DNA from: a virus
Strand: one strand, 5' to 3'
Length of the DNA stretch: 64,000 bases
Virus record (IMG/VR): IMGVR_UViG_3300017917_002441
Coordinates: 1-64,000 of that record
In this document: piece after piece, positions 3,371 to 56,623 of the stretch
Position numbering within the stretch: position 1 is the stretch's first letter
How the letters are laid out: every line of letters begins with the position of its first letter
Position numbers and translations under genes: made by a program
The notes under the pieces: generated by a model
Told to the model about the DNA's origin: nothing
Databases searched by the model: none
What the model saw: only the letters and a program-made list of their open reading frames with translations

Positions 3371-3380
3371 TGAGTCCAGG

Positions 3381-3405: not shown

Positions 3406-4038
3406 ATGGCAGTTTCATCACTACAGAGAATGACAGTACCGCTAGCTAGCGATCAAAGCGCAAGCACACAAGGTCTGTTGATGCCTAAACTCAAATATCG
3501 CTTTAGAGTGATGTTTGAAAATTTTGGCGTATCAAAGCCAACAACTGAATTGACTAAGCAAGTAATCAGCTTCACACGCCCTAATTTGAGCTTTGAAGAA
3601 ATCACACTACCAATTTACAACTCAACATTGAAGTTGGCAGGTAAGCACACATGGGCTGATGCTACATGTGAAATCCGTGACGATGCAAGTGGCGCAATCA
3701 GTAAACTTATTGGCGAACAACTACAGAAGCAAATGGACTTTTTGGAAATGGCTTCTGCAAGTTCAGGTATCGATTACAAGTTCTTAACAAGAGTCGAAGT
3801 ACTAGACGGTGGTAATGGCGCAAGCGAGCCAATCGTTCTAGAAACTTGGGAACTATACGGTTGCTATCTAAAGTCAGCAGACTATGGCGCATTGAACTAC
3901 GGTGAAAGCGCACCAGTCACAGTTAATTTGACAATTGCTTACGACAACGCTAACCAGACCCCTGAAGGTACTGGTGTTGGCACACCAATTGGACGTACCC
4001 TAGGCGACGTGGTAACCGGTGCTGGCCAAGGCCAGTAA
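3406..4038 (+). CDS. Tail tube protein (gp19-like)
   Basis: Follows sheath; YRFRV, LAGKHTW and WELYGCY..DYG.LNY motifs. Confidence 0.85.
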   Translation: MAVSSLQRMTVPLASDQSASTQGLLMPKLKYRFRVMFENFGVSKPTTELTKQVISFTRPNLSFEEITLPIYNSTLKLAGKHTWADATCEIRDDASGAISKLIGEQLQKQMDFLEMASASSGIDYKFLTRVEVLDGGNGASEPIVLETWELYGCYLKSADYGALNYGESAPVTVNLTIAYDNANQTPEGTGVGTPIGRTLGDVVTGAGQGQ

Positions 4039-4048
4039 GGAGTAATCC

Positions 4049-5200
4049 ATGGCCAATGGCGGCGGTCCATTTGGTATTGGCAATCAAGTCTTCAAAGGCT
4101 TTATTGGAAATGACGTCTTGCGTGATTACACTCACGCAAGTCGTACATTCACGACCAACAGTTACGAACTTAAACCACGCTTTAAGTTTTTATTCCATGT
4201 TAGCTTTACTATCAACGTTCAGCAAATTCCTTATCTCCGTGGCGTTTTTAGTAACGATGATATTCAAGAACTCAGCTTGTTGGTTAAAACAGTTGACTTA
4301 CCCAAGTACAACATTGCAACACAGACGCTGAACCAGTATAATCGTAAACGTGTAGTACAAACCAAAGTTGATTACCAGCCAGTTTCGTTGACATTCCATG
4401 ACGACGGTGGCGATAACAGTCGCAAGCTTTGGTACTATTATTTCAGTTACTACTTTAAAGACCCTGCTCAACGATATTTGTCGCCAAATAACACCAACGG
4501 AAGTTTGGGTGCTAGTTTAAACAGCCCAGCTGGCTTTGGTTACAACAGCAGAGACATTTACAACGATATTCTTCAAGTCAAAGACTGGGGTTACTCAGGG
4601 GAGACTTGGAACGACGGAACCAGTGCCACAGGTGGTAAGCCACCTTTCTTTAGAGACATACGTATATACGGCATGGATCAGCGCAAGTTTGCTGAGTATG
4701 TGCTAGTAAACCCAATTATATCAAACTGGAGTCATGATCAATATGACTACAGCCAAGGATCTGGTGTTATGCAACACAGCATGACCATTAACTATGAAAC
4801 TGTAAAATACTACGAAGGCGCAGTGGGTGGATCTCGTCCAGACACCAACGTACAAGGATTTGCAGACCCCAGCCACTACGACACACGTGTTAGCCCCATT
4901 GGTCGCCCCGGTGGCAATCAAACAGTGTTTGGGCAAGGTGGATTGCTGGACGCTGGTATTGGTATATTGAGCGACTTACAAAGTGGCACAGTGGGTGGCT
5001 TAATTGGTGCCGCACAAACAGCCGCACGTTCGTACAACACATTCAAGGGTGCAGACCTAAAGAGCATTACCAAGAGTGAAGCTATTGCCCTGGGCAAGAA
5101 TACTATCATACAGGCTATTCCTGGCGCAGTGCGACCAGTATTAAACAAGCCAACTGGTATATTCATCCCAACACCCACAAACCCTAACAACAATCCTTGA
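4049..5200 (+). CDS. Tube-fold baseplate protein (gp54/gp48-like)
   Basis: VKTVDLP..YNRKR..YQPVSLTFHDD tube-like fold; position after the tube gene. Confidence 0.6.
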   Translation: MANGGGPFGIGNQVFKGFIGNDVLRDYTHASRTFTTNSYELKPRFKFLFHVSFTINVQQIPYLRGVFSNDDIQELSLLVKTVDLPKYNIATQTLNQYNRKRVVQTKVDYQPVSLTFHDDGGDNSRKLWYYYFSYYFKDPAQRYLSPNNTNGSLGASLNSPAGFGYNSRDIYNDILQVKDWGYSGETWNDGTSATGGKPPFFRDIRIYGMDQRKFAEYVLVNPIISNWSHDQYDYSQGSGVMQHSMTINYETVKYYEGAVGGSRPDTNVQGFADPSHYDTRVSPIGRPGGNQTVFGQGGLLDAGIGILSDLQSGTVGGLIGAAQTAARSYNTFKGADLKSITKSEAIALGKNTIIQAIPGAVRPVLNKPTGIFIPTPTNPNNNP

Positions 5201-5201
5201 T

Positions 5202-5561
5202 ATGTCAACAGTAAATTATGCTAACACCAACATAGATCAAACCGTAAGAATTTTTGATAGTTTTTATCGGTATGATGTACAAGTGCCCGCGGCTGAATAC
5301 GATGTAGTGTTTAGCTACTTCAAGTCGAACATGAAGAACGCACGTGCCGCTGGTAATTTTACAGTGAGTTTGTTTCAAGTAGCACAAGAAACCAATGTAC
5401 CTCCGTTGACATTGCTCAAGCAATTTGAAGGTACTAGTGGGGTAAACCTCAATGCTACATTGGCATACTACCTCAATCAAATACGCAGCCGCGCCACATT
5501 GTTGGGTGTAGGTGCACCAGTGGTGCCCAATGCGTATGCAGCCAGAAACGTATTACAGTAA
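5202..5561 (+). CDS. Hypothetical protein
   Basis: ORF abutting both neighbours in the late operon. Confidence 0.7.
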   Translation: MSTVNYANTNIDQTVRIFDSFYRYDVQVPAAEYDVVFSYFKSNMKNARAAGNFTVSLFQVAQETNVPPLTLLKQFEGTSGVNLNATLAYYLNQIRSRATLLGVGAPVVPNAYAARNVLQ

Positions 5562-5564
5562 ACT

Positions 5565-5996
5565 ATGGCTAAGTGGGCTCAAGGTCAATACATAGTTCAA
5601 AATCGTGAAAAGTATGTTGGCAAAGGTACGCCAAGATATCGTTCAGGTTGGGAACACAGCTTTATGCGTTTTTGCGACAGCAATGACCATATACTACAGT
5701 GGGCATCAGAAAGCATTGCTATTCCCTACCGCAATCCCATAACAGGCAAAATGACTAACTATGTGCCAGACTTCTTGATCACATATCGCACTAGAAACAA
5801 TACAGTCAAAGCCGAACTCATTGAAATCAAGCCTAAAAAACAAAGCGTGGTAGAAGACCGAATGAGCTCTAGAGACCGTGCAGTTGTAGCAGTAAACTAC
5901 GCTAAGTGGGATGCCGCAACCAAGTGGGCACGCCGTAATGGCATGACATTTAGGGTTATAACCGAAACAGACATGTTTCACATGGGTGGCAAGTAG
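5565..5996 (+). CDS. Head completion nuclease (gp4-like, TnsA-type PD-(D/E)XK)
   Basis: YRSGWE..FM..CD, WASE..IPY, YVPDF, IEIKP and KWDAA..W..F.VITE motifs. Confidence 0.9.
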   Translation: MAKWAQGQYIVQNREKYVGKGTPRYRSGWEHSFMRFCDSNDHILQWASESIAIPYRNPITGKMTNYVPDFLITYRTRNNTVKAELIEIKPKKQSVVEDRMSSRDRAVVAVNYAKWDAATKWARRNGMTFRVITETDMFHMGGK

Positions 5997-6529: not shown

Positions 6530-7138
6530 ATGAAACCATTTGCACAATACCTCGCTGAAAGCGAACGTACCTATGATTATCGGATCAAAATCTGCGGTAA
6601 ACCACCAGCAGACACTGTTCGATTATTGAAACAACGTCTTGATCAATTTGATCCTGTACGCATGGGAGATGAAAAGTCTACCCCGGTACAACCAATCCCC
6701 ACTGACTTCCCTAACTTCAAAAATGAATCAGTTACCATGCTTGATGTAAGCTTTCGCTATCCAGCGATTGAGCCACAAATCAAGCAACTGTTTCAGTTGT
6801 TAGGTGGCGACCCTAATCGTTTAGTAATGACCACTCGTGATTACAATGACAGCATGGCCGCTGAGTACAAGAAGATTGAAGATGAAAACCAGGATCTTGT
6901 TGCTGACACTGACTATCCTGCACCTGATGCAGAACAAAAAGGTCTCAAGAAAGACTACAGTGTAGAGGCTCATGATCACGTTGTGCTAAAAAATCAATAT
7001 CGTTCCGACTTCACAGTGGCAGGTGGCAAGACCCGTCCAGCAGTGACAACAAATGATTTCAAAACTGGTAACACCAGTCCGATGACAAAAATTAACCGTC
7101 CGGCAAAGCCAGCGACTGGTGCCAAACCAAGAGGATAA
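6530..7138 (+). CDS. Putative head/internal protein with capsid-targeting-like N-terminus
   Basis: Starts MKPFAQYLAE-S (T4 CTS is MKTYQEFIAE); TAAATA at 6507. Confidence 0.55.
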   Translation: MKPFAQYLAESERTYDYRIKICGKPPADTVRLLKQRLDQFDPVRMGDEKSTPVQPIPTDFPNFKNESVTMLDVSFRYPAIEPQIKQLFQLLGGDPNRLVMTTRDYNDSMAAEYKKIEDENQDLVADTDYPAPDAEQKGLKKDYSVEAHDHVVLKNQYRSDFTVAGGKTRPAVTTNDFKTGNTSPMTKINRPAKPATGAKPRG

Positions 7139-9156: not shown

Positions 9157-9774
9157 ATGAAAAGCTTTCTTGATTATCTAGCCGAAGCAAACTATGCCGC
9201 ACAAGTTCCGGTAGTGGGCGACGACTTTGCTATCAACATTCGTGAAGAATGTTTGTTAGAAACGTATGTTTGCGAAGAAGCCATTGACGGTGTTGTGTTG
9301 TTTGCTGACGACCGCATGATGGAGATTCTTGAGAGCTATGCTTTATTAGAAACTGCACCTCACGAAACTGTGATTCTTGAAGGCATGACCAAACAGGCCA
9401 TGCACGACGATGCTGACCGCATGAGTCTTGAGCAGTTTGTTGACAAGTACGGTGACGAGGAATGGGTTCATGAGTTTTGGCACAACATCAATGATGACAT
9501 TGACGAAGCCAAGTATCAAGGACGCGAAGTTCCGCTGGGTAAGCCCATGAAGGGCGATGTTAAAAAATCCAAAGTATATGTACGTGGTCCCAAGGGCAAT
9601 GTAGTTAAGGTAAACTTTGGTCACGGTGGCACCAGTGCTAAACGTGCTGGTCAACAGACCATGAAGATCAAGAAGTCAAACCCAGCAAGACGTAAAAGTT
9701 TTAGAGCAAGACACAACTGTGATAATCCGGGCCCAAGACACAAGGCTCGCTATTGGAGCTGCCGTGCTTGGTAA
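9157..9774 (+). CDS. Putative internal protein with CTS-like leader and basic C-terminal domain
   Basis: Starts MKSFLDYLAE-A; C-terminal RRKSFRARHNC..ARYWSC domain follows IDE-A. Confidence 0.6.
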   Translation: MKSFLDYLAEANYAAQVPVVGDDFAINIREECLLETYVCEEAIDGVVLFADDRMMEILESYALLETAPHETVILEGMTKQAMHDDADRMSLEQFVDKYGDEEWVHEFWHNINDDIDEAKYQGREVPLGKPMKGDVKKSKVYVRGPKGNVVKVNFGHGGTSAKRAGQQTMKIKKSNPARRKSFRARHNCDNPGPRHKARYWSCRAW

Positions 9775-10269: not shown

Positions 10270-10641
10270 ATGCGAGCTTGCGAGTTTATCACCGAAGCCC
10301 GTGAAGGTAAATTAAGCAAACGCCTGCAGGCAGCTACTCGCGGCCTTAATACATTCTCTGATGGTGAAAAGTGGAATACTGATTACACTCTTAACCGTGT
10401 GATGATGGCAGTAGCTTGCACAGACGGATCATTTGTTCCTGACATTGACTGGAAAAGCTGGATAGGCAAATCCAAGTCTGCACATCCTTATACCAAAGAA
10501 GAGCAAGAAATGCTAAAAATGGCTTACAAGGCTGCTAATGCCAAGTGGGATGATACAAACCACGGCGACATGGACAGCGAAGAACATCCAGCAGTGAACA
10601 AAGAAAGCCCGGTCAAAGCATTCAAAGGATATCCAAGATGA
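10270..10641 (+). CDS. Putative internal protein, paralog A
   Basis: Starts MRACEFITE-A; ends SPVKAFKGYPR. Confidence 0.65.
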   Translation: MRACEFITEAREGKLSKRLQAATRGLNTFSDGEKWNTDYTLNRVMMAVACTDGSFVPDIDWKSWIGKSKSAHPYTKEEQEMLKMAYKAANAKWDDTNHGDMDSEEHPAVNKESPVKAFKGYPR

Positions 10642-11024
10642 GAGCTCGAGATTTTATCAAAGAAGAGAAAAATCTTCCAGTTGAAATCTCCGCGCCGCTA
10701 AGGCAGACGTATGTTGTGCCAGGACTCAGTGCCGCTGATCCTTACAACAATTATAGATTTGGTGTAGCAATTGCTAGAGCTAGAAGTGATTATCGTAAAA
10801 ACGACGTCAATCCACACATGCCAAACTGGAGCCCAGAAACAGCGTTTGGTGAACACGGTGTAGTTGTAGGTATGAACGCAGGTATTCAGCCTGTGATTGA
10901 TGCGGCATTGAAAATGACTGGCACCAAGGGCGGTAAAAGAATAGTATCAACTCCAGACAGCGATGAGCCTGAATTTGTTGAAAAGAAAAGCCCAGTAAAA
11001 GGCTTCAAAGGATATCCAAGATGA
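10638..11024 (+). CDS. Putative internal protein, paralog B
   Basis: Starts MRARDFIKE-E; ends SPVKGFKGYPR. Confidence 0.65.
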   Translation: MRARDFIKEEKNLPVEISAPLRQTYVVPGLSAADPYNNYRFGVAIARARSDYRKNDVNPHMPNWSPETAFGEHGVVVGMNAGIQPVIDAALKMTGTKGGKRIVSTPDSDEPEFVEKKSPVKGFKGYPR

Positions 11025-12622: not shown

Positions 12623-13377
12623 TTTTTGAAAATCCCCCAGTGCATTTTGGCATATATTATGCCAATCAAACACTGCGCTGGTTACCAACTGACACTGAGG
12701 AAAGCTACAACAAATTAATTCAAGACCCCAAACATCTTGAGTACTTTCGCAATCTGGGCTGGGATCATCCAGATGCAATAACTTATAAATTAAACAACTA
12801 CGGTTACCGTGCTGATGAATTTGATGACCAACCTTGTGTTGTTGCATTGGGCTGTAGTTATACAGTGGGGATTGGATTACCAGATCAAACTACTTGGGCA
12901 AGACAAGTAGCAACAAAAATGGGATTAAAATGTGCCAATTTGGCCTGGGGTGGATACAGTACCGATACATGTTATAGAATAGCTGAGTACTGGATTCCTC
13001 GCCTGAATGTCAAATATGTTTGCATGTTGGCGCCTCCAAGATCTAGGGTTGAGTTACTGTTAGACCCTGCAATAAACATGCAACTGCCAGTAGAAATATT
13101 CTTGCCTCAAGGCACAGGCGATATGTTTGATTACAATGATTTATTTTTAAAACACTGGTTTTTAAACGAAGAAAACGCCAAGATAAATCAGCGAAAGAAT
13201 ATCCGAGCTATACAAAATTTGTGTACAGAATTAAACATACCTTGCACTGTTTACACTGCCGACGAGTACATGTCTCAAAGTCGTGAGGAAATAGGTTATG
13301 CTAGAGATTACATGCATGGCGGTCCAAAGATACATAATATATTAACAGAAAAGTTCTTAGATGGTTATAAAGAGTAG
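12613..13377 (+). CDS. SGNH/GDSL-like hydrolase or acyltransferase
   Basis: LGCSYT, NLAWGG and C-terminal D..HGG...H. Confidence 0.55.
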   Translation: MPMIFENPPVHFGIYYANQTLRWLPTDTEESYNKLIQDPKHLEYFRNLGWDHPDAITYKLNNYGYRADEFDDQPCVVALGCSYTVGIGLPDQTTWARQVATKMGLKCANLAWGGYSTDTCYRIAEYWIPRLNVKYVCMLAPPRSRVELLLDPAINMQLPVEIFLPQGTGDMFDYNDLFLKHWFLNEENAKINQRKNIRAIQNLCTELNIPCTVYTADEYMSQSREEIGYARDYMHGGPKIHNILTEKFLDGYKE

Positions 13378-14941
13378 TTTAGAAACAGTACTAGTTAAAT
13401 CTCCTTACCGGAGAGAAACCTACACCGAGCACGAGCTTCAAGAGTTTGCTCTCTGTGCAGACCCTGTCACGGGTCCTATGTACTTTATGGACAACTTTTT
13501 CTACATCCAGCATCCCACACGTGGTAAAATGTTGTATCACCCGTTTGGGTATCAAAAGAAGCTGATTGAAACTTATCACAACTATAGATATTCAATTAGT
13601 TTGATGCCACGACAAACTGGTAAGTCAACCAGTGCCGCAGGTTACTTGTTGTGGTATGCTATGTTTGTGCCCGACTCAACAATTTTAATTGCCGCGCACA
13701 AATATACTGGTGCTCAGGAAATTATGCAACGTATTCGTTTTGCATACGAACTATGCCCTAATCATATTCGTGCTGGTTGCACCAGTTACAACAAAGGCTC
13801 GCTGGAGTTTGAAAACGGCAGTCGTATTGTATCAGCTACCACAACTGAAAACACTGGTCGTGGTATGTCTATCTCTCTTCTATACGCTGACGAATTTGCG
13901 TTTGTGCGACCCACAATTGCCACAGAGTTTTGGACTTCTATTAGTCCTACATTGGCCACAGGTGGTAAGGCAATTATTACTAGTACACCTAACTCAGACG
14001 AGGACAAGTTTGCTGAAATTTGGAAATTAGCAAACAAATGTGAAGATGAATTTGGTAACCCTACTGTGCTGGGTCGTAATGGATTTAAAGCCTATCGTGC
14101 TTACTGGAATGAGCATCCTGACCGAGATGAAAAGTGGGCCGCTGAACAACGAGCACAGCTAGGTGAAGAACGTTTCCGTCGAGAAATGGACTGTGAATTC
14201 GTTATCAACGACGAAACGCTGATCAGTCCAGTCAAGCTATTGGACCTTGAAGGTATTGAGCCAGTTAAAAAGACTGGACAAGTTCGTTGGTATCGTAATC
14301 CCCGCCCTGGCGAAATGTACATTGTGGCCCTGGATCCTAGCTTGGGCACCGGCGGAGACCCTGCTGCCATACAAGTGTTTGAAGCACGTACCACAGAACA
14401 AGTGGCCGAGTGGCGTCACAACAAAACTGACATACCTACGCAGATTCGCATCATGGCGGACATAATCAAAGAACTCAACTCAGTGGTCAACGATTCAAAG
14501 AGCATTTACTACAGTGTAGAAAACAACACCATTGGTGAAGCGGCTTTGATCTCAATTGCTGAATATGGGGAAGAAAACATACCCGGTTACTTTCTCAGTG
14601 ATAACAGTGTGATAAACGGTGTAGGACGCAAATTCCGCAAAGGCTTTAACACCACAAACAAAGCCAAAATCACAGCATGCAACAAGTTTAAAATTTTGGT
14701 GGAAAGCGGGCGTATGCAAATACGCTCAAAACCCTTGGTGTCTGAACTTAAAACATTTGTTGCCAATGGCACTAGCTATGCGGCAAAACCTGGGGAAACT
14801 GATGATTTGGTAATGAGTACGTTGTTGGCTGTGCGTATGCTGATGTTGTTACAAACATACCATGCTGAACTAGATGCACACCTTAAAGATCACTCAGACA
14901 ACATCATTGAGCCCATGCCCTTCATTTCTATAATGCGCTAA
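13361..14941 (+). CDS. terL: Terminase large subunit (gp17-like)
   Basis: PRQTGKS Walker A, YADEFAF Walker B, ITSTPN, LDPS.G.GGD and DDLVMS. Confidence 0.96.
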   Translation: MVIKSSLETVLVKSPYRRETYTEHELQEFALCADPVTGPMYFMDNFFYIQHPTRGKMLYHPFGYQKKLIETYHNYRYSISLMPRQTGKSTSAAGYLLWYAMFVPDSTILIAAHKYTGAQEIMQRIRFAYELCPNHIRAGCTSYNKGSLEFENGSRIVSATTTENTGRGMSISLLYADEFAFVRPTIATEFWTSISPTLATGGKAIITSTPNSDEDKFAEIWKLANKCEDEFGNPTVLGRNGFKAYRAYWNEHPDRDEKWAAEQRAQLGEERFRREMDCEFVINDETLISPVKLLDLEGIEPVKKTGQVRWYRNPRPGEMYIVALDPSLGTGGDPAAIQVFEARTTEQVAEWRHNKTDIPTQIRIMADIIKELNSVVNDSKSIYYSVENNTIGEAALISIAEYGEENIPGYFLSDNSVINGVGRKFRKGFNTTNKAKITACNKFKILVESGRMQIRSKPLVSELKTFVANGTSYAAKPGETDDLVMSTLLAVRMLMLLQTYHAELDAHLKDHSDNIIEPMPFISIMR

Positions 14942-30066: not shown

Positions 30067-30739
30067 GTTGTTGACAGTACTCGGTGTAGATACGTTCTCT
30101 ATGCCACTCATCCCCCATGGGAGTTGTAGCAAATTCATGAAAACTTGGTGTGCCCAGTGTGTAATGCAACAGTTTGGCATTGGGGTTTGGGCCGTATTCG
30201 TCAGGCAGCCAATTCCATTCTGGCGGCAACTCGCCAATGCGTTCATCACTGGTCCACTCAAATCTGTGCAAATGCGCACCTGTGGATTTTTGTATGTACT
30301 CGGGTGTTAGTTTTTTTGTTGGAAAATTGTTGCAGTTAAAAAGCATTACACTGCTCCAATTTTTTCTTGGATAATCTTCGTTTTTGCTACCAAGATACTT
30401 TTCTGTCATCTTAGTTTTGTAATCATGCTTGACTACCATGACATCTTTGCCAACTTCGGCCAAGTTCCACAACTCGGCTATGTCACCGCGCACAATCATA
30501 TCTCCGTCCATGAAGATAGCATACCCTTGATAGCCCATCAAGTACGGTACTAAAAATCTTGAATAGATAAACTGATTGCTACCGTCAGTGTGTGTTTCTG
30601 TGTAGTCTTTGAAGTTGTTTAATGCCAATGGAACAATTGCTACCGGGACGCTGGAATGCCTAATGATGCTGTTGGCACATACGTGATACGCAATGGCTTC
30701 TCTTGGATCATACCCGATAAAAATTGGAATTGGTTTCAT
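30053..30739 (-). CDS. GT8-like glycosyltransferase
   Basis: IFIGYDPRE, SRFLVP, FMDGDM, KNWSSVM and WN.L..LLHYT.G.P. Confidence 0.8.
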   Translation of the reverse strand: MKPIPIFIGYDPREAIAYHVCANSIIRHSSVPVAIVPLALNNFKDYTETHTDGSNQFIYSRFLVPYLMGYQGYAIFMDGDMIVRGDIAELWNLAEVGKDVMVVKHDYKTKMTEKYLGSKNEDYPRKNWSSVMLFNCNNFPTKKLTPEYIQKSTGAHLHRFEWTSDERIGELPPEWNWLPDEYGPNPNAKLLHYTLGTPSFHEFATTPMGDEWHRERIYTEYCQQRDIK

Positions 30740-31503
30740 TATCGTCTTTCGATGTCATCTTCAACACAGCGGTCACCGTATTGAATTTCTACCACACGCA
30801 GTTCTTCTGTGCCTTCGTTACACAGCTGATGCCACTCATTGTTTTTGATATGAATGTGTTTGAACTTTTCAAACACGCCCAAGAGCTCTGCGTCAGTTTT
30901 TTGATTCACAGTATAAACAGTTGCAGTACCTTGTGCCACAAACCAGTGCTCTGCTCGGTCGTTGTGTCGTTGCATACTGAGATTTTGCCCAGGCGCAACA
31001 GTGAGTTCCTTGACTTTGACTTCGTTTGCTTGCTCATGTAACACACGGTAGTATCCCCAAGGACGTGCAGTTTTGGGAGCCTTCCATTCTTCAAGGATCC
31101 AACTGCTGGAATTTCGTTTGTCGAATCCGCCTACACCAAATACAAACTTGACATTGGTATCGGCAATGTCCATTTCAGGAATGTTTTTATCGGTACGATC
31201 CCCACCGTTGGCAAAGATAATTTCGTCATCTGGATATTTTTCACGAACTTTGGCAATGGCTGATTTAGCACTGCCGTCGCTGTCGTCGAACTCAATGACC
31301 CAATCAACCATGCTCAAGTGTCGTACCACAGATACTCGTTCTGCAAACGGCATAAAGGCACGCCCTTTTTTGCGTGACAGCCAGGCATCGCTGTTTAGGC
31401 CCACTACCAGCACATCGCCTAGGCGTCGTGCGTCTTTAAAATATTCAATGTGACCAGAGTGTATGGGGTCAAACCCACCAGTGACTAAAACAATTTTTTT
31501 CAT
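30739..31503 (-). CDS. Cytidylyltransferase-like domain fused to a mannose-6-phosphate isomerase-type cupin
   Basis: GGFDPIHSGH and GLNSD.WL..KKG; C-terminal RPWG.Y..LSMQRH..RAEHW..EIQYG...EDDIER. Confidence 0.88.
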   Translation of the reverse strand: MKKIVLVTGGFDPIHSGHIEYFKDARRLGDVLVVGLNSDAWLSRKKGRAFMPFAERVSVVRHLSMVDWVIEFDDSDGSAKSAIAKVREKYPDDEIIFANGGDRTDKNIPEMDIADTNVKFVFGVGGFDKRNSSSWILEEWKAPKTARPWGYYRVLHEQANEVKVKELTVAPGQNLSMQRHNDRAEHWFVAQGTATVYTVNQKTDAELLGVFEKFKHIHIKNNEWHQLCNEGTEELRVVEIQYGDRCVEDDIERR

Positions 31504-46037: not shown

Positions 46038-47024
46038 ATGCTTGACATCTTGACGTATCTTCCTGCGAAACGAAAACAGACCCCCAGCGGCTGGATCAGT
46101 TTCAATGCACCGTGTTGTCAACACAACGGCAACACCCAGGATCGTCGTCAGCGTGGTGGTCTAAAGCCCAATGATCAAGGTTGGAGTTATCACTGTTTCA
46201 ATTGTGGATACACTGCCAGCTTTCAACTTGGGCGCAATGTTTCATTCAAGGCACGTAGACTGCTGGGTTGGATGGGAGTGCCCGACAATGAAATTGAGCA
46301 TTTGAATTTAGAAAGTATGAAGCACAGAAATGTGCATGGCATATTAAACGAACGTCAGCGGCTGAGCAATGCGCTGAGTGCCATTGAATTTGAAGAAAAG
46401 GACTTGCCGCCTTTTGCTGAATTGCTAACACCTGAGCACAAGTATTACTGGGATTATGTTCAAAGTCGATGTGTGCCTGCAGACTTTCCCATGATGGTTC
46501 AAATTGAAAACGACGGCATACATTGGACAAGATCACATGTAGTTGTGCCATTTACATACGACAATAAAGTAGTTGGTTGGACTTGTAGATTTTTAGACAA
46601 CAAACAACCCAAATACATTTCAGACAGTCAACCTGGTTATGTGTTTGGAGTAGATTTGCAACATAGTGACTGGCAACATGTGATTGTGACCGAAGGTATA
46701 TTTGATGCACTCAGCATCAACGGTGTGGCAGTGATGCACAACACCATAAGCGACGCACAGGCCAGACTGATACGCAGCCTGGACCGTGCCATTACAGTGG
46801 TTCCTGACATGGACAGTGCGGGGGTAGAGTTGATTGACCGTGCAGTGGAATTGGGGTGGGCCGTGAGCATACCTGACTGGCCCGAAGGCGTCAAGGATGT
46901 CAACGATGCTGTGATTCGTTTGGGCAAACTGCCTACACTGCTAACTATACTGCAAGCTAGAGAAACCAGTAAAATTAAGATAGAATTAAAGAGGAAGCAA
47001 CTTGTTAAAAGAATACGGAACTGA
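46038..47024 (+). CDS. DNA primase (gp61-like)
   Basis: Zinc ribbon (PCC..HCFNC); TOPRIM EGIFDA, PDMD.AG and KDVND. Confidence 0.9.
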   Translation: MLDILTYLPAKRKQTPSGWISFNAPCCQHNGNTQDRRQRGGLKPNDQGWSYHCFNCGYTASFQLGRNVSFKARRLLGWMGVPDNEIEHLNLESMKHRNVHGILNERQRLSNALSAIEFEEKDLPPFAELLTPEHKYYWDYVQSRCVPADFPMMVQIENDGIHWTRSHVVVPFTYDNKVVGWTCRFLDNKQPKYISDSQPGYVFGVDLQHSDWQHVIVTEGIFDALSINGVAVMHNTISDAQARLIRSLDRAITVVPDMDSAGVELIDRAVELGWAVSIPDWPEGVKDVNDAVIRLGKLPTLLTILQARETSKIKIELKRKQLVKRIRN

Positions 47025-48402
47025 TGTACAGCGATTGTTTCTAGAAATGATGCTGGAGGACGCACAGAGTTTTGTGCGAGTATCCAACATCTACAATGCC
47101 AGCAATTTTGATAAAAATCTGCGCCCGGCCGCAGAGTTTATTCGCGAACACAGCGACAAATTTAAAACCATGCCTGACAGACTGCAGATTGAAGCAGCCA
47201 CAGGTATAAAGTTACAGGCAGTGCCAGACTTGAACGAAGGCCACTATGAGTGGTTCATGCAAGAGTTTGAAGCATTTACCAAGCGCCAAGAACTGGAACG
47301 TGCTATTCTCAAAGCCGCTGACTTGCTGGAAAAGGGCGAGTTTGATCCCGTGGAAAAACTCATAAAGGATGCTGTACAAATTTCATTGACCAAGGACATG
47401 GGCACAGACTTTTGGATGGATCCCGAAGGCATGTTTGCCAAGTACTTTGATGCAGGTGGACAAGTTTCAACTGGTTGGCCACAACTGGACAAACTGTTGT
47501 ATGGTGGGTTCAGTCGCGGCGAACTCAACATCTTTGCAGGTGGATCAGGATCAGGTAAATCCTTGGTGATGATGAACATTGCGCTAAACTGGGTGCAACA
47601 AGGATTGAATGGTGTGTACATCACACTAGAACTTAGTGAAGAGCTCACAGGCTTGCGTACAGCGGCCATGCTGACCAACATGAGCACAAAAGATATCCGC
47701 AAAGACAAAGAAACAGCGGCGTTAAAAGTCAAGTTAGTGGGCAAGAAAGCCGGTAGCTATCAAGTCAAAGCACTGCCAGCACAGAGTAACATCAATGACA
47801 TTCGTGCATACTTGAAAGAATATCAAATCAAGAGTGGCAAGAAGGTAGACTTCATGATGATTGACTACTTAGACTTGTTGATGCCTGTCAGCGCAAAAGT
47901 CAGCCCCAATGACTTATTTGTCAAAGACAAGTATGTGTCAGAAGAACTTCGTAACCTAGCCAAGGAGCTGGGTATATTGATGGTAACTGCATCGCAGTTG
48001 AACCGTAGTGCAGTTGAGGAGATTGAGTTTGATCACTCGCATATTTCAGGTGGTATTTCAAAGATTAATACTGCGGACAACGTATTTGGTATTTTTACTA
48101 GCCGTGCTATGCGTGAGCGTGGCAAGTATCAAATTCAGTGTATGAAAAGTCGTAGTTCCACAGGTGTGGGACAAAAGATTGACTTGGAGTACAACATTGA
48201 AACCATGCGTATCACAGACGAGGGTGGCGATGAGGGAGGCTCGGGTGGATTTACCAAGAAGCCCAGTATTCTTGAGTCAATTAAAACACAGAGTCGTGTC
48301 GTGGAATCGGCGCCCGATGAAGACGCCGATGTTGGTAAAGTCACTGCCGATGTTCAAAGTGCCAAGCTCAAACAGCTACTTGGCAAAATCAAAACCAATT
48401 AA
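47002..48402 (+). CDS. Replicative DnaB-like helicase (gp41-like)
   Basis: GGSGSGKS, TLELSE, IDYLDL and TASQLNR; TTG start with GAGGA RBS. Confidence 0.92.
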   Translation: MLKEYGTDVQRLFLEMMLEDAQSFVRVSNIYNASNFDKNLRPAAEFIREHSDKFKTMPDRLQIEAATGIKLQAVPDLNEGHYEWFMQEFEAFTKRQELERAILKAADLLEKGEFDPVEKLIKDAVQISLTKDMGTDFWMDPEGMFAKYFDAGGQVSTGWPQLDKLLYGGFSRGELNIFAGGSGSGKSLVMMNIALNWVQQGLNGVYITLELSEELTGLRTAAMLTNMSTKDIRKDKETAALKVKLVGKKAGSYQVKALPAQSNINDIRAYLKEYQIKSGKKVDFMMIDYLDLLMPVSAKVSPNDLFVKDKYVSEELRNLAKELGILMVTASQLNRSAVEEIEFDHSHISGGISKINTADNVFGIFTSRAMRERGKYQIQCMKSRSSTGVGQKIDLEYNIETMRITDEGGDEGGSGGFTKKPSILESIKTQSRVVESAPDEDADVGKVTADVQSAKLKQLLGKIKTN

Positions 48403-50021
48403 GTAGTTGAACCCTTGATCACAGCAAAGCGAAGCACAAGAGCTTCGCTGAGTGAACCAGCTGTGGCATTGCGCACATAAATTGTAGCAGATCCAGCACC
48501 ACAGCTGGCAGTAAATGTATAAGCACCAACTGTGCCACCGCTTACATGGTTAATAACCAAGACGTCAGTGGCTGCAATGGTACTGTTGGTCAGTGTAAAA
48601 TTCACAATACCACCGCCGCCCAGGGCAGTGTTTTGCATGGTAATCTGACCCGAAGGCTTGTTAATAACCACTGTGTCAGTTTTGTTACCAGATTGTGATC
48701 CAGTGCCACCTGCACCTGCACCATAACCCATGGTACCGCCATCAGTTAGTATCACACCACTGCCGCCGCTGACCAAGATATTGCCGGCAGCTACATTGCC
48801 TGGGAATGTAGCTACAGTAGATGACACAGTCATGCTCAAGGTCTTGGCATTGGAGCCTGTGGCTGACGTAAACAGTTTGATGTTTGTACCCTGCGCCGAG
48901 TCAGTAAAGTTTTCAGTAGCTACTGCTTCAATTGCACAGCCAGCGCCGCCAGGAGCACCAAAGTCTGTGCCATCCCAGCCCACAAATCCAAATCTTGCCA
49001 GCACATCGCCACTTTGGATTGCTGTGGGCGCGGCCGCTGTTCCACGTGCGGCACGAGCAGTAAAAGTAGGAATAGCACCAGTACCAAATGCATCATTGAC
49101 AATACGGCTTGAAGCACCATCATTGCCGGTGATGTGAATCATGCAACCTGTGTTGGTAAGAGGTTGGTACGTAGTTGACCCTTGGATACTGAATGCACCG
49201 GCTGTATTGGCTGCCACAGTGGGAGTTTTAATTTGTAAAAATCCAGTATCTAACACCTGGAAACTAACGTTACCTGTGCTAGTGTAAGTAGAAAGATTAC
49301 CACCCACGTTGAGGTTACCACTGATACCGGTACCGCCAGCCACTGTCAGCGCACCAGTTGTTTTGCTGGTACTGGCTGTGGTGTTTAAGATGTTTACTGG
49401 GCTGTCAAAAACGTCTCGTGGACGAGTAAGTTCTTGCACTGAAATTTGTGTGCCGCCATCCGCAGTAGTAAATTCATAGATGTAAACGTTGACATAAGGA
49501 GCTGTTTGGCTAAAAGTAATGGTGTTAGATACACCAGCTGTGCCCGGACTTACTCCTTGCAATCCTTCTACGCCCACACGCACACTGGCAGGCAGTGTCA
49601 ATGTATGCGCTGTATTGGTACACACAAACGCAAAACGCAAAACGCCAACTTGCCCATCTGAAGGCCAATTGCTAAAGCTCAAGCTAACTGATCCAGAACT
49701 GGCTGGAATAGCTTGGAACATGCCTGCACTGAAATCAAGGTTGATTGATCCTGAAGTTTGTGCTAAAGTTACTTCTGTAAAGCTGTTGTTCTTGATCTGT
49801 AGATTGCTCAATATGTTGTAGTTCATATTGTTGTCGAGCACAGTACCGTCTAGTGCGGCTTTGAACACACCTTTGCTCTGTAGCTCGTTGATTTCATCAG
49901 CGGCGTACTGGAAATTGGTTTTAGTATTGGTAAAATTGTCGCGGAATCCCTGGGTATTGTTGGGCACTCCGGCAACTGGATAATTACCATCTATGTTGTT
50001 TGGGTTTATCTGACTGGTCAT
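48399..50021 (-). CDS. Tail fibre-like structural protein
   Basis: G/T/S-rich; STSKTTGALTVAGG.GI.GNL.VGG fibre motif; minus-strand TAAATA at 50045. Confidence 0.7.
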   Translation of the reverse strand: MTSQINPNNIDGNYPVAGVPNNTQGFRDNFTNTKTNFQYAADEINELQSKGVFKAALDGTVLDNNMNYNILSNLQIKNNSFTEVTLAQTSGSINLDFSAGMFQAIPASSGSVSLSFSNWPSDGQVGVLRFAFVCTNTAHTLTLPASVRVGVEGLQGVSPGTAGVSNTITFSQTAPYVNVYIYEFTTADGGTQISVQELTRPRDVFDSPVNILNTTASTSKTTGALTVAGGTGISGNLNVGGNLSTYTSTGNVSFQVLDTGFLQIKTPTVAANTAGAFSIQGSTTYQPLTNTGCMIHITGNDGASSRIVNDAFGTGAIPTFTARAARGTAAAPTAIQSGDVLARFGFVGWDGTDFGAPGGAGCAIEAVATENFTDSAQGTNIKLFTSATGSNAKTLSMTVSSTVATFPGNVAAGNILVSGGSGVILTDGGTMGYGAGAGGTGSQSGNKTDTVVINKPSGQITMQNTALGGGGIVNFTLTNSTIAATDVLVINHVSGGTVGAYTFTASCGAGSATIYVRNATAGSLSEALVLRFAVIKGSTT

Positions 50022-50044: not shown

Positions 50045-50074
50045 TATTTATTGCCAGTCCGAACCTGCTAAATA
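50045..50074. promoter_or_regulatory. Divergent pair of late promoter motifs
   Basis: TATTTA at 50045-50 and TAAATA at 50069-74. Confidence 0.65.
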
Positions 50075-50094: not shown

Positions 50095-50343
50095 ATGCAA
50101 AAGAAAACTCGTAGCTTACTAGAAGAATTGGACTCGATGTATGTCGAGCGTGATCGCCGTTTGTTGATTGAAAATCGTGCAAATACGCTGATACAAAACG
50201 CTATTCGACTGCTGGAAGAGATTGATCAAGAATACACTCCTGAGCAAGCTGAAAATCTAACTCGCAAATTGTTGAATGCAATACGCAATAGGGAACCTGA
50301 AAAATTCGTTAGATCCGTCAGGAGAACTCATGCAGATTCGTGA
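50095..50343 (+). CDS. Hypothetical late protein
   Basis: Downstream of TAAATA. Confidence 0.7.
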   Translation: MQKKTRSLLEELDSMYVERDRRLLIENRANTLIQNAIRLLEEIDQEYTPEQAENLTRKLLNAIRNREPEKFVRSVRRTHADS

Positions 50344-51016
50344 AATAGTTACTGAAGCCGCTCCAGGCTCGGCTGGTGCTCAAGCTGGTGTTTTTGGCAA
50401 GGCTTTTGCCGGCGCATTGGGACAAAAGATTGCCCCGGGTGCTAACCTTGGTGGACCACAAGCTGGTGCAGTGGCTCCTGGACAACGTGCTCAAGCCGCA
50501 CAGCAAATCAACCAAGCCGCTGTTGCTACACTAGCCAACAAAGGACAGCAAGCTTGGGTGCAGACTCTAAAGAAAATGATAGCTCAGAGTGATAATCCTG
50601 CACTGAGCCCAGACAAATTAGATATCAATGACACCAAAGAAAGTCTTGATGACATGGTACAAACTATGCTGGGCTTTGACCCAGCTGAGATCACCAGAAT
50701 GACTTCACCTGAAGCCAAAGCAGCCGGTGAAAAACTCAACAACGGCATTGCCATGGTGCTCAAAGCTAGTTCTACCCCACAAACCAATGACACAGCAATG
50801 AAGGCAGCCTGGGCTACGTTAGCTCTGGGTATTGCTGAAGCGCAAAATGCCAAATCATTCTTTGGTGGGGGAGCCACCAAAGGACCGGGTAAATTACCCG
50901 AAGTAACAGTGGGAGCGGATGGTAAACTATTGTATGATGGCAAACCTTTCAATGCCAGCGATCCACAACATGTGACTATGTCGCAAATTTTAGCTAAACA
51001 ATCGGCAGCAAAATGA
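50330..51016 (+). CDS. Putative internal protein with CTS-like leader
   Basis: AGGAG RBS; starts MQIREIVTE-A. Confidence 0.6.
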   Translation: MQIREIVTEAAPGSAGAQAGVFGKAFAGALGQKIAPGANLGGPQAGAVAPGQRAQAAQQINQAAVATLANKGQQAWVQTLKKMIAQSDNPALSPDKLDINDTKESLDDMVQTMLGFDPAEITRMTSPEAKAAGEKLNNGIAMVLKASSTPQTNDTAMKAAWATLALGIAEAQNAKSFFGGGATKGPGKLPEVTVGADGKLLYDGKPFNASDPQHVTMSQILAKQSAAK

Positions 51017-52887
51017 TAACAAAACTACTTGAAGGCGGAAACGTTTTTAAAGACGCCAACGGCAACCCGTTGACCGGCCGTATTAACCAAAGCGATGTTG
51101 CACAAACAGTGCAATGGATTGAAACACTCACAGGTTTGCAATTTCCCAAAGAGCGTTGGTTAGGATCAACTGGGCGCAAGCCTACATCAGGCGACTTAGA
51201 TCTAGCAGTGGATCTTAGTGAAATATCAAAAGATCAGTTGGCAGCCAAACTAACTCAGTGGGTTCAAAGTCACGGTGAAGATCCACGTGCTTGGGTTAAA
51301 AAGGGCGGCGAAGTACACTTACGCACTCCCATCAATGGTAAACCAGAAAACGGATTTGTACAAACAGACTTTATGTTTTTTCCTAATTTGGATTGGGGTA
51401 CATTTTTCTATGCTGGTGGTGAAGATTCTGCATACAAGGGCATGGTACGCAACGTATTAATGTCTAGTTTGGCCAAACATCAAGGCCTAAAGATTGGTGC
51501 CAACGGTGTTATCAGCCGAGCCACAAATCAAGTTGTAAGCATGGACCCAGACTGGGCCGCCCAAGCAGTATTGGGCAAAGGCCATGACCGTAACAGTTTA
51601 AAAAATGTTGAAAGCATTTATCAAGCCTTGACCAAGGATCGCGAACGTGATGCCAAATTGGCAGACTTTAGAGACTACCTGCAACGTGAAGGCTTGCAAG
51701 AGCCCGGTGCTGTGACAGAAAGTGATGTGGGATTCTTGGCTCGACTGCGTGACAGAATTGTCAATCAAGGCATGAGCCCGCTGATCGAACACGAAGTTGT
51801 TACCGAAGCTGAAGTAGCTGGTGTAGGCGGCAGAGCCAAGGGCATTGAACACTTGGAAGATCTTGTGTTTAGACACGGTAGCCGCGGTGTTGAACAAGCT
51901 CTGGGCATTGTGGCGCACCTTGCTGAGCAACCCAGCAGTGCTACAGTAAAGTGGGACGGAAAACCTGCTGTGGTGTTTGGTCGCAAGCCTGCCACAGGTG
52001 AGTTTGTGCTCACAGACGGTTCGGGCTTTGAAGCCAAGGGCTACGACGGACTTGCAACGTCACCAGAAATGATGGCGCAGATACAAAACATGCGTGGTGC
52101 CAACAGACAAGAACTCATTAACATTTACGCTACACTGTTCCCGCTGTTGGAAGCGGCTGTACCACAAAACTTCCGTGGATATGTCAAGGGCGATTTGCTG
52201 TATATGAGCAAACCTGAGTTGGTAGCTGGTAACTATGTATTCCAACCCAACACAGTGGAATATCGTATTCCAGCCAAATCTAGCCTAGGCAAACGCATTG
52301 GCAACAGCGACATCGGCCTAGCTATGCACTCAATGTACGGTGATGTTGGCGAACCACGCCAGCCCCTGAGCCGTGTGACATTTAACGAAGTTCCAGGGCT
52401 ATTGTTGCTAGAACCTATTGCTGGAAAAGAAATACAACTCAATCAACAGTTGATTAAAGAAATTCGTAGTTTGATGCGTAGCAAAGGCAAAGCCATTGAT
52501 ATCTTGTTTAACCCAGCAGAGCTACGAGCACAGCAGATCACAGACTTGGCCAAGCTCTGTGTTGATTATATCAATGCTAGAATTCCCACTGGTAACTTTG
52601 ATAACTTGTTGGGCGGGTTTGGTGAGTGGCTACAGCAACGAGTTACTCCAAGAAAGTTTGCTAATATTGTTGAGTACCTAAAGAGTCCCAGTTCAAATAC
52701 CGAAGGCATGGCTGCGGCGTTTACACTGTTCTTGTTGTTGCACGATCTCAAGATGGACTTGCTACAACAGCTGGATCAGCAAAGCCCTGGTAATGAAGGC
52801 TGGGTCATGGCTACTCCTGCAGGTTACGCCAAAGCAGTGAATCGCTTTGATTTCACTGCTAGAAACCGAGCCAGAAACAACTCCTAA
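51013..52887 (+). CDS. PolX/Pol-beta-like nucleotidyltransferase fused to a ligase-type (KxDG) domain
   Basis: LGSTGRKPTSGDLDLAV..VQTDF; then KWDG, VKGDL, EGWV and AKAV motifs. Confidence 0.7.
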   Translation: MITKLLEGGNVFKDANGNPLTGRINQSDVAQTVQWIETLTGLQFPKERWLGSTGRKPTSGDLDLAVDLSEISKDQLAAKLTQWVQSHGEDPRAWVKKGGEVHLRTPINGKPENGFVQTDFMFFPNLDWGTFFYAGGEDSAYKGMVRNVLMSSLAKHQGLKIGANGVISRATNQVVSMDPDWAAQAVLGKGHDRNSLKNVESIYQALTKDRERDAKLADFRDYLQREGLQEPGAVTESDVGFLARLRDRIVNQGMSPLIEHEVVTEAEVAGVGGRAKGIEHLEDLVFRHGSRGVEQALGIVAHLAEQPSSATVKWDGKPAVVFGRKPATGEFVLTDGSGFEAKGYDGLATSPEMMAQIQNMRGANRQELINIYATLFPLLEAAVPQNFRGYVKGDLLYMSKPELVAGNYVFQPNTVEYRIPAKSSLGKRIGNSDIGLAMHSMYGDVGEPRQPLSRVTFNEVPGLLLLEPIAGKEIQLNQQLIKEIRSLMRSKGKAIDILFNPAELRAQQITDLAKLCVDYINARIPTGNFDNLLGGFGEWLQQRVTPRKFANIVEYLKSPSSNTEGMAAAFTLFLLLHDLKMDLLQQLDQQSPGNEGWVMATPAGYAKAVNRFDFTARNRARNNS

Positions 52888-55917: not shown

Positions 55918-56310
55918 ATGGCATATTCTGACAAAGTAGTGGACCACTATGAAAACCCCCGCAATGTGGGTTCGTTTGACAAAGGCGACAACAGTGTGGG
56001 CACTGGTATGGTTGGTGCGCCGGCATGTGGTGATGTTATGAAACTACAAATAAAGGTGGACGATGCTACAGGTATTATTACAGACGCGAAATTTAAAACG
56101 TATGGCTGCGGCTCGGCAATCGCAAGCTCAAGCCTTGTTACGGAATGGGTCAAAGGAAAAACCCTTGACGAAGCCGCAACCATCCGAAACAGTGAAATCG
56201 CAGAAGAGCTTGCCCTTCCACCAGTTAAGATCCACTGTTCAATCTTGGCTGAAGACGCTATAAAAGCCGCAGTAGAGGACTATCGTAAAAAACATGATAT
56301 CAATAACTGA
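55918..56310 (+). CDS. iscU: Fe-S cluster scaffold
   Basis: DHYENPRNVG, GAPACGDVM, KTYGCGSAIASSS and LPPVKIHCS. Confidence 0.97.
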   Translation: MAYSDKVVDHYENPRNVGSFDKGDNSVGTGMVGAPACGDVMKLQIKVDDATGIITDAKFKTYGCGSAIASSSLVTEWVKGKTLDEAATIRNSEIAEELALPPVKIHCSILAEDAIKAAVEDYRKKHDINN

Positions 56311-56623
56311 TGCGGCTGTTTGCAAGATTAAAGAAAACATCAAACGTCGTGGACGCGGCCTAGGTATCAAAGTTGGCATACGCACCACTGGCTGTTCTGG
56401 TCTTGCATATACATTGGAATATGTTGATGTTGAGCAGGGCAAAGAAATTTGCATGATGCACCATGACATCAACGGTGTACGAGTTTACATAGACCCCAAA
56501 CATTCTCCTTACTTAACAGGCATGACCATGGATTGGGTCCGCAATGGACTCAACGAAGGTTTTGATTTTATTAACCCCAATGAACGTGACCGTTGCGGTT
56601 GCGGAGAAAGCTTTAGAGTTTAA
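56294..56623 (+). CDS. iscA: Fe-S A-type carrier
   Basis: TTGCSGLAY and NPN..CGCGESF. Confidence 0.95.
   Translation: MISITDAAVCKIKENIKRRGRGLGIKVGIRTTGCSGLAYTLEYVDVEQGKEICMMHHDINGVRVYIDPKHSPYLTGMTMDWVRNGLNEGFDFINPNERDRCGCGESFRV

Follow-up and report, generated by a model that had tools for sequence, protein, structure and literature searches.

We report a phage gene that encodes, in a single polypeptide, a minimal domain resembling the family X DNA polymerases (PolX) and a ligase-fold domain of the Pfam family DUF6267. The gene, P0001, occupies positions 51013–52887 of the + strand in the first 64,000 nt of the IMG/VR virus record IMGVR_UViG_3300017917_002441; this stretch of 64,000 nt is the window to which coordinates refer unless the whole record is named. 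The record measures 149 kb with a CheckV completeness of 44%, and its source is a jumbo myovirus. The two halves of the protein very probably serve as a polymerase and a ligase acting on polynucleotide ends, be they of DNA or of RNA. Within that frame we favor, at a probability of about 0.5, a bifunctional enzyme that acts on gaps and nicks in the phage's duplex DNA, filling and sealing them. We infer the activities of the fusion protein, its cofactor (ATP or NAD+), its DNA or RNA substrate and the timing of its expression from computational evidence.

Domain organization and conservation

The open reading frame (ORF) runs through 624 codons, while the opposite strand is full of stops. A sequence-only reading of the window had delimited this ORF and quoted a series of motifs from it, all of which we located in the 624-aa product: GS at 51–52, GDLD at 60–63, VQTDF at 116–120 and FFYAG at 131–135 in the N-terminal half, and KWDG at 313–316, VKGDL at 391–395, EGWV at 595–598 and AKAV at 606–609 in the C-terminal half. 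Homologs number >4000 in the 90% database, the best 120 all having both domains, and 1514 matches were found among 50%-identity representatives. Conservation was counted across representatives of the 50%-identity clusters, 88 N-domains and 112 C-domains, and for the motifs of the fusion protein it is far beyond chance.

Following the N-terminus (MITKLLE-GG), the predicted minimal polymerase domain, consisting of palm and thumb, spans aa 8–200 (51034–51612, +), as delimited by AlphaFold2 modeling, Foldseek, VIA-align and conservation. Model secondary structure and the alignment then place a helical extension and inter-domain linker at aa 201–277 (51613–51843, +), in which a conserved FLARLRDRIVNQGM helix is followed by LIE-H and VTE-A; the predicted local distance difference test score (pLDDT) of the N-terminal model drops to ∼60 beyond aa 230. 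The DUF6267 domain, a putative ligase-fold nucleotidyltransferase identified by Pfam and the same four lines of evidence, fills the remainder of the protein (aa 278–624; 51844–52884, +).

The N-terminal domain

The AlphaFold2 model of the N-domain, computed from a 40-sequence alignment, has a pLDDT of 91.4 and a predicted template modeling score (pTM) of 0.82. Searched against the PDB with Foldseek, it gives 131 significant matches (E from 6e-5), the leaders being exclusively family X polymerases, namely pol lambda, pol beta, pol mu and Thermus PolX. VIA-align places residues 13–200 on residues 139–335 of pol beta, its palm and thumb (Z 10.8, root-mean-square deviation (rmsd) 3.3 Å, 162 residues). 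In a scan of 48,161 PDB representatives that is independent of Foldseek, the top 10 are again all family X (Z 10.5–7.8 over 147–182 residues), and the PolX of African swine fever virus (ASFV; PDB 5hr9) aligns at Z 9.0 and rmsd 3.6 over 157 of its 176 residues (model residues 21–199). Other enzymes of the Pol-beta fold reach Z ≤6.6 in the same scan, over ∼85 residues of the palm only; among these are terminal uridylyltransferases, CutA, Trf4, CD-NTases, MenT, OAS, poly(A) polymerase and CCA enzymes. Because palm and thumb together match PolX, whereas other nucleotidyltransferases match by the palm alone, the modeled domain resembles PolX specifically, including its nascent-base-pair subdomain, and not just the generic Pol-beta fold. 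The sequence-only reading had recognized a minimal PolX palm and C-terminal subdomain here, and the AlphaFold and Foldseek analysis bears this out with a PolX fold over aa 8–200.

The catalytic residues agree with the fold. The PolX pattern hG[GS]-x9-13-DxD with a third carboxylate is present as G51-S52, D61-L-D63 and D119; D61 is retained in 86 of the 88 N-domains, D63 and D119 in 87 each, and the members of the full set (G51-[ST]52, D61, D63, D119) in 84–87. A basic residue at position 146 in the thumb helix, R146 in the fusion protein, is found in 86/88 and is probably the counterpart of pol beta R283. The 8-kDa 5'-deoxyribose phosphate (dRP) lyase domain and the helix–hairpin–helix (HhH) fingers are missing, since the fold begins at about aa 8–13, aligned to about residue 139 of pol beta.

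Judged by sequence profiles, the domain is not a member of the PolX family. The N-terminal 260 residues have no Pfam match at E up to 1, nor any match among PHROGs with an assigned function or in NCBIfam. The ESM Atlas provided leads only, in the form of viral clusters of which 17–19% of members bear PolX palm or thumb models.

The C-terminal domain

The C-terminal half matches Pfam DUF6267 (PF19782) over aa 278–618 (E 2.8e-32; 112.9 bits against a cut-off of 27), covering model positions 4–371 of 376. In PHROGs the fusion protein falls into an unnamed family only, NCBIfam has no match for it, and our full-text literature search found no paper on DUF6267. The AlphaFold2 model of the domain (pLDDT 93.7, pTM 0.90) retrieves exclusively DNA and RNA ligases as its top 50 Foldseek matches in the PDB, although the alignment is broken up by a large insertion and the scores are therefore weak (E 5e-3 to 0.1, TM ∼0.2). 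VIA-align matches it to residues 145–339 of the RNA ligase NgrRnl at Z 8.6 and rmsd 3.8 over 180 residues, followed by Trl1 (Z 7.5), T4 Rnl1 (7.2), human ligase I (7.1) and T4 Rnl2 (6.8). An unbiased scan agrees, in that the first 29 of the 48,161 PDB representatives are all covalent nucleotidyltransferases (Z 8.2–5.1, 142–198 residues), comprising RNA ligases, DNA ligases, capping enzymes and bacterial Pnkp. In BFVD, members of the family come first, among them proteins of S-PM2 (591 aa) and PA5oct, and then viral RNA and DNA ligases. The protein of Pseudomonas phage PA5oct, a cultured jumbo phage (A0A4Y5JUK8, 446 aa), is a relative of DUF6267 at the level of the fold (Foldseek E 2.8e-7, TMq 0.46). 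These matches to ligases and capping enzymes accord with the ligase-type nucleotidyltransferase fold that the sequence-only reading had proposed.

That reading had also assigned ligase motifs I, III, IV and V. Motifs I, IV and V stand, and in the proposed order; motif III as VKGDL is plausible and yet ambiguous, since FVLTD335 is equally invariant, both it and KGD394LLY being invariant Asp-bearing strands. KWDG, at the end of the strand at residues 48–51 of the C-domain model, contains K313, D315 and G316, each conserved in 104 of 105 aligned C-domains, and K313 is the presumed equivalent of NgrRnl K170. The last two strands of the model carry E595-G-W-V and K607-x-V-x-R611, with E595 and G596 present in 110/110 and K607 in 107/108. 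Further landmarks are H439 and the invariant H280-x-E282-D283, which opens a long helix ahead of motif I. An all-helical insertion of ∼115 residues (aa 478–590; 52444–52782, +; DSSP helices at 216–328 of the C-domain model), with an invariant K580, sits between motifs IIIa and IV, and structural alignments to ligases pass over it. As noted from sequence, there is no room for an oligonucleotide-binding (OB) domain: one helix of 17 residues is all that comes after motif V. The helical insertion is a candidate substitute for the OB or clamp domain.

Homologs and domain architectures

When the best 150 representatives were classified with hidden Markov models (HMMs) of both halves, 56 had the C-domain alone, 54 had the N-C order (with one additional N-N-C protein), 32 had the N-domain alone and 7 had the reverse C-N order. 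Fusion of the two domains has thus been repeated independently, and its occurrence in both orders is a strong sign of two activities that work together. At least 6 representative clusters have a triple fusion of the PolX-like domain, DUF6267 and a HIGH-superfamily transferase, and other fusions add haloacid dehalogenase (HAD) domains of the NT5C or DUF2608 type.

DUF6267 occurs in 227 cultured-phage records, mostly of T4-like cyanophages, and in thousands of metagenomic proteins. Phages S-PM2, S-CAM3, Melnitz and DLP6 have a DUF6267 without the polymerase-like domain, fused to or trailed by a HIGH-superfamily transferase, for which the best matches in S-PM2 are nicotinamide mononucleotide (NMN) and nicotinic acid mononucleotide (NaMN) adenylyltransferases, all below cut-off. 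The S-PM2 record (AJ630128; 5980–7759) divides its DUF6267 between p138 (model positions 1–157) and p139 (194–376, plus CTP_transf_like); this is likely an annotation or sequencing break in an old record, because BFVD has a single 591-aa protein. The record under study has just one clear CTP_transf_like gene (30739–31503, −; E 3.7e-16), which is surrounded by genes of the reverse strand and does not adjoin the fusion gene. We considered whether a hidden PolX-like partner might be encoded by the hypothetical gene that precedes DUF6267 in S-CAM3, Melnitz and DLP6, and rejected this for want of any HMM or Pfam signal.

The fused form is absent from the cultured phages in our collection, where no record (0) reached ≥80% coverage, and a megablast search with the fusion region found no match among cultured phages. 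Contigs that bear orthologs of the fusion measure 343–697 kb.

Comparison with known enzymes

The concept of a polymerase–ligase fusion is already known, from PgVPolX and from LigD. PgVPolX of Phaeocystis globosa virus 16T, a fusion of PolX and NAD+ ligase, has been shown biochemically to fill gaps and then seal the nick (PMC5537341). It shares with the phage protein an N-terminal family X polymerase and a C-terminal ligase on one polypeptide, but has a full Pol-beta core including the 8-kDa dRP-lyase domain, together with a canonical LigA-type ligase, whereas the phage polymerase domain is minimal and its DUF6267 partner has no OB domain, no LigA adenylation domain and no detectable sequence relation to known ligases. 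LigD, of bacterial non-homologous end joining, likewise joins an end-filling polymerase to a ligase, and has a phosphoesterase too, much as some relatives of the phage protein have a phosphatase; unlike the phage protein, its polymerase has the archaeo-eukaryotic primase fold and its ligase bears an OB domain, and no Ku partner is evident for the phage fusion.

The novelty lies in the parts that are joined: a minimal PolX of a second lineage, and a ligase-fold family, still annotated as a domain of unknown function, that lacks an OB domain and bears an insert. ASFV PolX has been described as the only PolX that lacks the 8-kDa and fingers parts (PMC5537341), and the phage N-domain would stand beside it, likewise being palm and thumb only, with the same hG[ST]...DxD...D layout. 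The two differ in that sequence identity is 13% with no link by sequence profiles, and in that the phage domain has an additional conserved N-terminal LxEGGNVFK segment and a helical tail of ∼60 aa. The 174-aa ASFV enzyme works with a separate ligase of its own virus, whereas the phage domain is fused to its presumed ligase partner.

For the C-domain the closest known structure is NgrRnl (Rnl5), with an rmsd of 3.8–3.9 over ∼180 residues, the motif I Lys, motif IV EG and motif V Lys in the same order, and no OB domain at the C-terminus. Unlike NgrRnl, Trl1, TbREL1, T4 Rnl1 and T4 Rnl2, to which it is only 9–14% identical, the phage domain has its helical bundle inserted instead of a domain appended at one of the ends; it also differs from these RNA ligases in having one Lys plus an Arg in motif V (K607...R611) and the invariant H-x-E-D helix before motif I. 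The ligase fold with its conserved Lys nucleophile gives DUF6267 a testable activity, and a compact OB-less fusion of polymerase and ligase may be of interest to developers of enzymes and tools.

Genomic neighborhood and other ligases

The fusion gene lies downstream of genes for a primase (46038–47024 of the window) and a DnaB-type helicase (47002–48402), and the order primase, DnaB, variable genes, an 82-aa gene, a ∼230-aa gene and the fusion gene is kept in relatives of 346 kb and 697 kb, even though the fusion ortholog of the 697-kb contig is only 56% identical. After its primase and helicase genes, phage Atu_ph07 has an 83-aa homolog of the 82-aa protein, a ∼240-aa gene, gp066 and gp065. 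There gp065 has the PolX-like domain by itself (32% identity, E 7e-18), and gp066 is a different ligase-fold protein with a weak PF09414 match, called 'RNA ligase' in BFVD; their genes overlap (4013–5810 of the Atu_ph07 sequence), in the order opposite to that of the fusion. Polymerase and ligase are thus found as a pair even where one type of ligase has been exchanged for another. The DUF6267 genes of S-PM2, S-CAM3 and Melnitz follow just after replication genes of the gp43/UvsX/gp41 type.

The record also encodes a canonical gp30-like ATP DNA ligase with an OB domain (PF14743 and PF01068; P0271, record positions 68480–69853), and nowhere in it did we find a LigA adenylation domain. DLP6 combines an ATP ligase with DUF6267, and Atu_ph07 an NAD+ ligase with its pair of PolX-like and RNA-ligase-like proteins. 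For S-PM2, S-CAM3 and Melnitz, neither an ATP ligase (gp30-like) nor an NAD+ ligase was found. This agrees with reviews of the cyanomyoviruses, which report no homolog of the gp30 ligase and ask about a distant one (PMC2984593, PMC1079782). The cyanomyovirus ligase gap may close, these three phages being without a canonical ligase and with DUF6267 beside their replication genes. A strict either/or relation of DUF6267 and canonical ligases was rejected, as both DLP6 and the phage under study have the two together.

Between DnaB and the genes that lead to the fusion lies a gene for 540 aa (48399–50021, −), the C-terminal part of which matches phrog_18251. Its slot is variable, with 363 aa plus an extra 331-aa gene in relative L003 and no such gene in relative L005.

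Proposed function

We propose that one polypeptide would supply two nucleotidyl-transfer enzymes that act in series on broken nucleic acid. With D61, D63, D119 and a pair of metal ions, the palm and thumb of the N-domain would lengthen a strand at its 3'-OH by a single nucleotide or a few, probably under the direction of a template; DUF6267 would become adenylylated on K313, pass the AMP to the 5'-phosphate and seal the nick, with the helical insertion possibly standing in for the missing OB or clamp function. The likeliest substrate is gapped or nicked phage DNA that arises from repair, recombination or the late maturation of replicated DNA, which would give the fusion a specialized role beside the canonical gp30-like DNA ligase of the phage. 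We favor DNA because the palm and thumb are PolX-specific, the neighborhood consists of replication genes in three phage lineages, and PgVPolX offers a precedent.

Several results weigh against gap filling and sealing of DNA. Among 20 relatives of the N-domain, the Pfam palm and thumb models gave only one match each, at E 0.08 and 0.22, and profile searches of PDB sequences retrieved no PolX chain with the N-domain and no ligase with the DUF6267 profile, the single protein as query being equally unproductive there; hhalign gave a probability of 0.15% for DUF6267 against the gp30-like DNA ligase family of the phage itself, and we rejected a sequence kinship of the two on that result. The Z of ∼8 for the C-domain is only middling, the dRP-lyase domain is missing, and the nearest ligase folds are those of RNA ligases (NgrRnl, Trl1, REL1, Rnl2 and Rnl1), ligases that lack an OB domain being typically RNA ligases. 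With a canonical DNA ligase in the genome, sealing of DNA by the fusion is not required. In a 99%-complete relative we found no AP endonuclease of the Xth type and only a sub-threshold Nfo-like match; this and the lack of a dRP-lyase domain led us to reject a full base excision repair pathway.

A broader proposal, which we put forward tentatively, is that the DUF6267 proteins are unrecognized true polynucleotide ligases, which would supply T4-like cyanophages and related marine phages with their 'missing' DNA ligase, possibly fed by an NMN-adenylyltransferase-like partner such that NAD+ is used or regenerated, and that in jumbo phages they have been welded to the second minimal PolX lineage as a one-protein machine for gap filling and sealing.

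Alternative readings

Some of the same evidence fits repair of RNA, in which the C-domain, acting as an RNA ligase, would rejoin tRNA or other RNA that RNases of the host defense have cleaved, and the PolX-like domain would restore lost 3' nucleotides in the manner of RlaP. RNA ligases score Z 8.2–8.6 (NgrRnl), 7.3 (Trl1), 7.2 (TbREL1) and 6.8 (Rnl2 and Rnl1) against the C-domain, compared with ≤6.8 for DNA ligases, although this gap of 1–2 units is close to a tie. The absence of an OB domain from DUF6267, the RNA-ligase-like gp066 as partner in Atu_ph07, the HAD phosphatase fusions, which are reminiscent of end healing by T4 Pnkp, and the presence of a canonical DNA ligase elsewhere in the genome all point the same way. 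The concept also exists for jumbo phages, in which RlaP Pol-beta transferases have been proposed to work with RNA ligases (PMC7824862). However, the N-domain matches the DNA-templated family X over both palm and thumb and not the RNA-specific transferases, and the Pfam RlaP model had no match to the fusion protein at E up to 1, nor did it appear among the weak matches of the 20 N-domain relatives. The neighborhood is moreover one of DNA replication, no polynucleotide kinase domain was found in the adjoining genes that we scanned, and the 149 kb contain no tRNA genes. We therefore regard RNA repair as somewhat unlikely and gap filling and sealing of DNA as the better reading.

A different account concerns the fate of the protein rather than its substrate. 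The sequence-only reading had suggested that the fusion is targeted to the capsid, cut after [LIV]-x-E at its N-terminus and in its linker by a T4-type protease, and ejected with the DNA as two separate enzymes that form an end-healing kit. Sites of the type [hydrophobic]-x-E are present in the linker region (VTES 234, LIEH 257 and VTEA 263), and an L/I-x-E recurs after the linker helix. In 76 of 79 domains GGNVF comes directly after [LI]-x-E; Glu occupies the position ahead of GG in 76/79, and Leu or Ile the third position ahead of it in 74/79. Some relatives have leaders of the MRFxEF- or MRDxLDKL type, similar to leaders elsewhere in this genome that resemble those of T4 internal proteins (IPs). 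But [LI]xE is also kept in 29 internal domains, in C-N fusions or behind long N-terminal extensions, and many leaders are only 4–6 residues long (e.g. MLNE-GG and MITE-GG), as compared to 7 aa in the fusion protein. Conserved at internal positions and after very short leaders alike, [LI]xEGGN[VI]FK behaves as one element of the domain. Genome-wide, N-terminal [LI]xE is only mildly enriched (26 observed, 18 expected).

The remaining arguments for packaging come from the operon. A promoter-like TAAATA motif (50068–50073, +), 22–27 nt before the first gene, heads an operon of three genes. The first gene (50095–50343, +), whose place is conserved in L003 and L005, encodes an 82-aa homolog of Atu_ph07 gp068 (BLASTP E 5e-7), to which the annotation gives a structural role in the virion. 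The second gene (50330–51016, +) encodes a 227-aa protein rich in Ala, Gly and Gln that begins MQIREIVTE-A and has no Pfam or PHROG match. Its counterparts in relatives have 227 and 235 aa and a 14-nt overlap with the 82-aa gene, and its start at 50330 is the most likely one because the gene calls of relatives agree on it; it shares an ATGA with the fusion gene, in which its stop and the fusion start overlap. Both co-operonic proteins look virion-like, in leader or in homology. The TAAATA motif pointed out from sequence does behave as a genuine promoter-like signal, in that 30 of its 60 genomic occurrences are sense-oriented and ≤60 nt upstream of gene starts, where ∼2.2 would be expected (∼14-fold enrichment); examples lie near window positions 3380, 6500, 14940, 53420 and 57340. 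It also precedes the canonical DNA ligase gene, however, and so TAAATA alone is no marker of virion genes. Late timing of the operon is suggested by analogy with T4 only; occurrences of the full T4 late box TATAAATA in the genome do not exceed expectation (1 found, 1.6 expected), and genome scans for sigma-70 promoters and terminators gave background levels only.

No Peptidase_S77 protease (T4 gp21-type) was found at E up to 1 in either the 44%-complete record or a 99%-complete relative of 343 kb, under conditions that recovered the positive controls in S-PM2 (7e-37) and Atu_ph07 (2e-22), and a search with the Atu_ph07 protease as query gave no match; a divergent protease is conceivable, given the T4-IP-like leaders elsewhere in the genome. 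Virions of Atu_ph07 have been analyzed by electrospray ionization tandem mass spectrometry (PMC6102473), and in its record gp068 and gp072 carry a virion label, which gp065 and gp066 lack; likewise S-PM2 p138 and p139 bear no virion annotation, unlike their neighbors. With LxE apparently a part of the domain and no Peptidase_S77 detected in the lineage, the packaged, protease-split and ejected kit is unsupported. We consider it unlikely, and unproven rather than refuted.

Finally, the two domains might act on nucleotides or cofactors (NAD-linked or in salvage) or adenylylate a protein or small molecule, as the repeated occurrence of DUF6267 fused or next to a HIGH-superfamily transferase whose best matches, weak ones, are NMN/NaMN adenylyltransferases, the fusion to an NT5C nucleotidase-type domain and the lack of a recognizable nucleic-acid-binding domain (OB, HhH or 8-kDa) could suggest, but this is very improbable, as the structural neighbors of both domains all act on polynucleotide ends, the thumb with its conserved R146 is the element that binds the nascent base pair in PolX, and an NMN adenylyltransferase partner is equally explained by supply of NAD+ to a ligase.

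Other features of the window

Besides the primase and helicase genes, the window encodes a tail sheath (20–3340) and a large terminase (13361–14941), and the record also has genes for a tube protein, SSB and NrdA. The terminase is closest to those of PA5oct (52%) and Sinorhizobium phage Phosso (49%), the latter having a genome of about the same size as Atu_ph07.

Four unrelated proteins begin with the T4-IP-like leaders mentioned above: MKPFAQYLAE-S (6530–7138), MKSFLDYLAE-A (9157–9774), MRACEFITE-A (10270–10641) and MRARDFIKE-E (10638–11024). These leaders suggest capsid-targeted, protease-trimmed proteins, though Peptidase_S77 is undetected in the lineage.

Downstream of the fusion gene, 55918–56310 and 56294–56623 form a phage-encoded pair of genes for Fe-S cluster assembly. 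The first has a GAPACGDV motif and a counterpart in L003 that matches NifU_N, and the L003 counterpart of the second matches Fe-S_biosyn (IscA-type); a Bax1-I family gene separates the two counterparts in L003.

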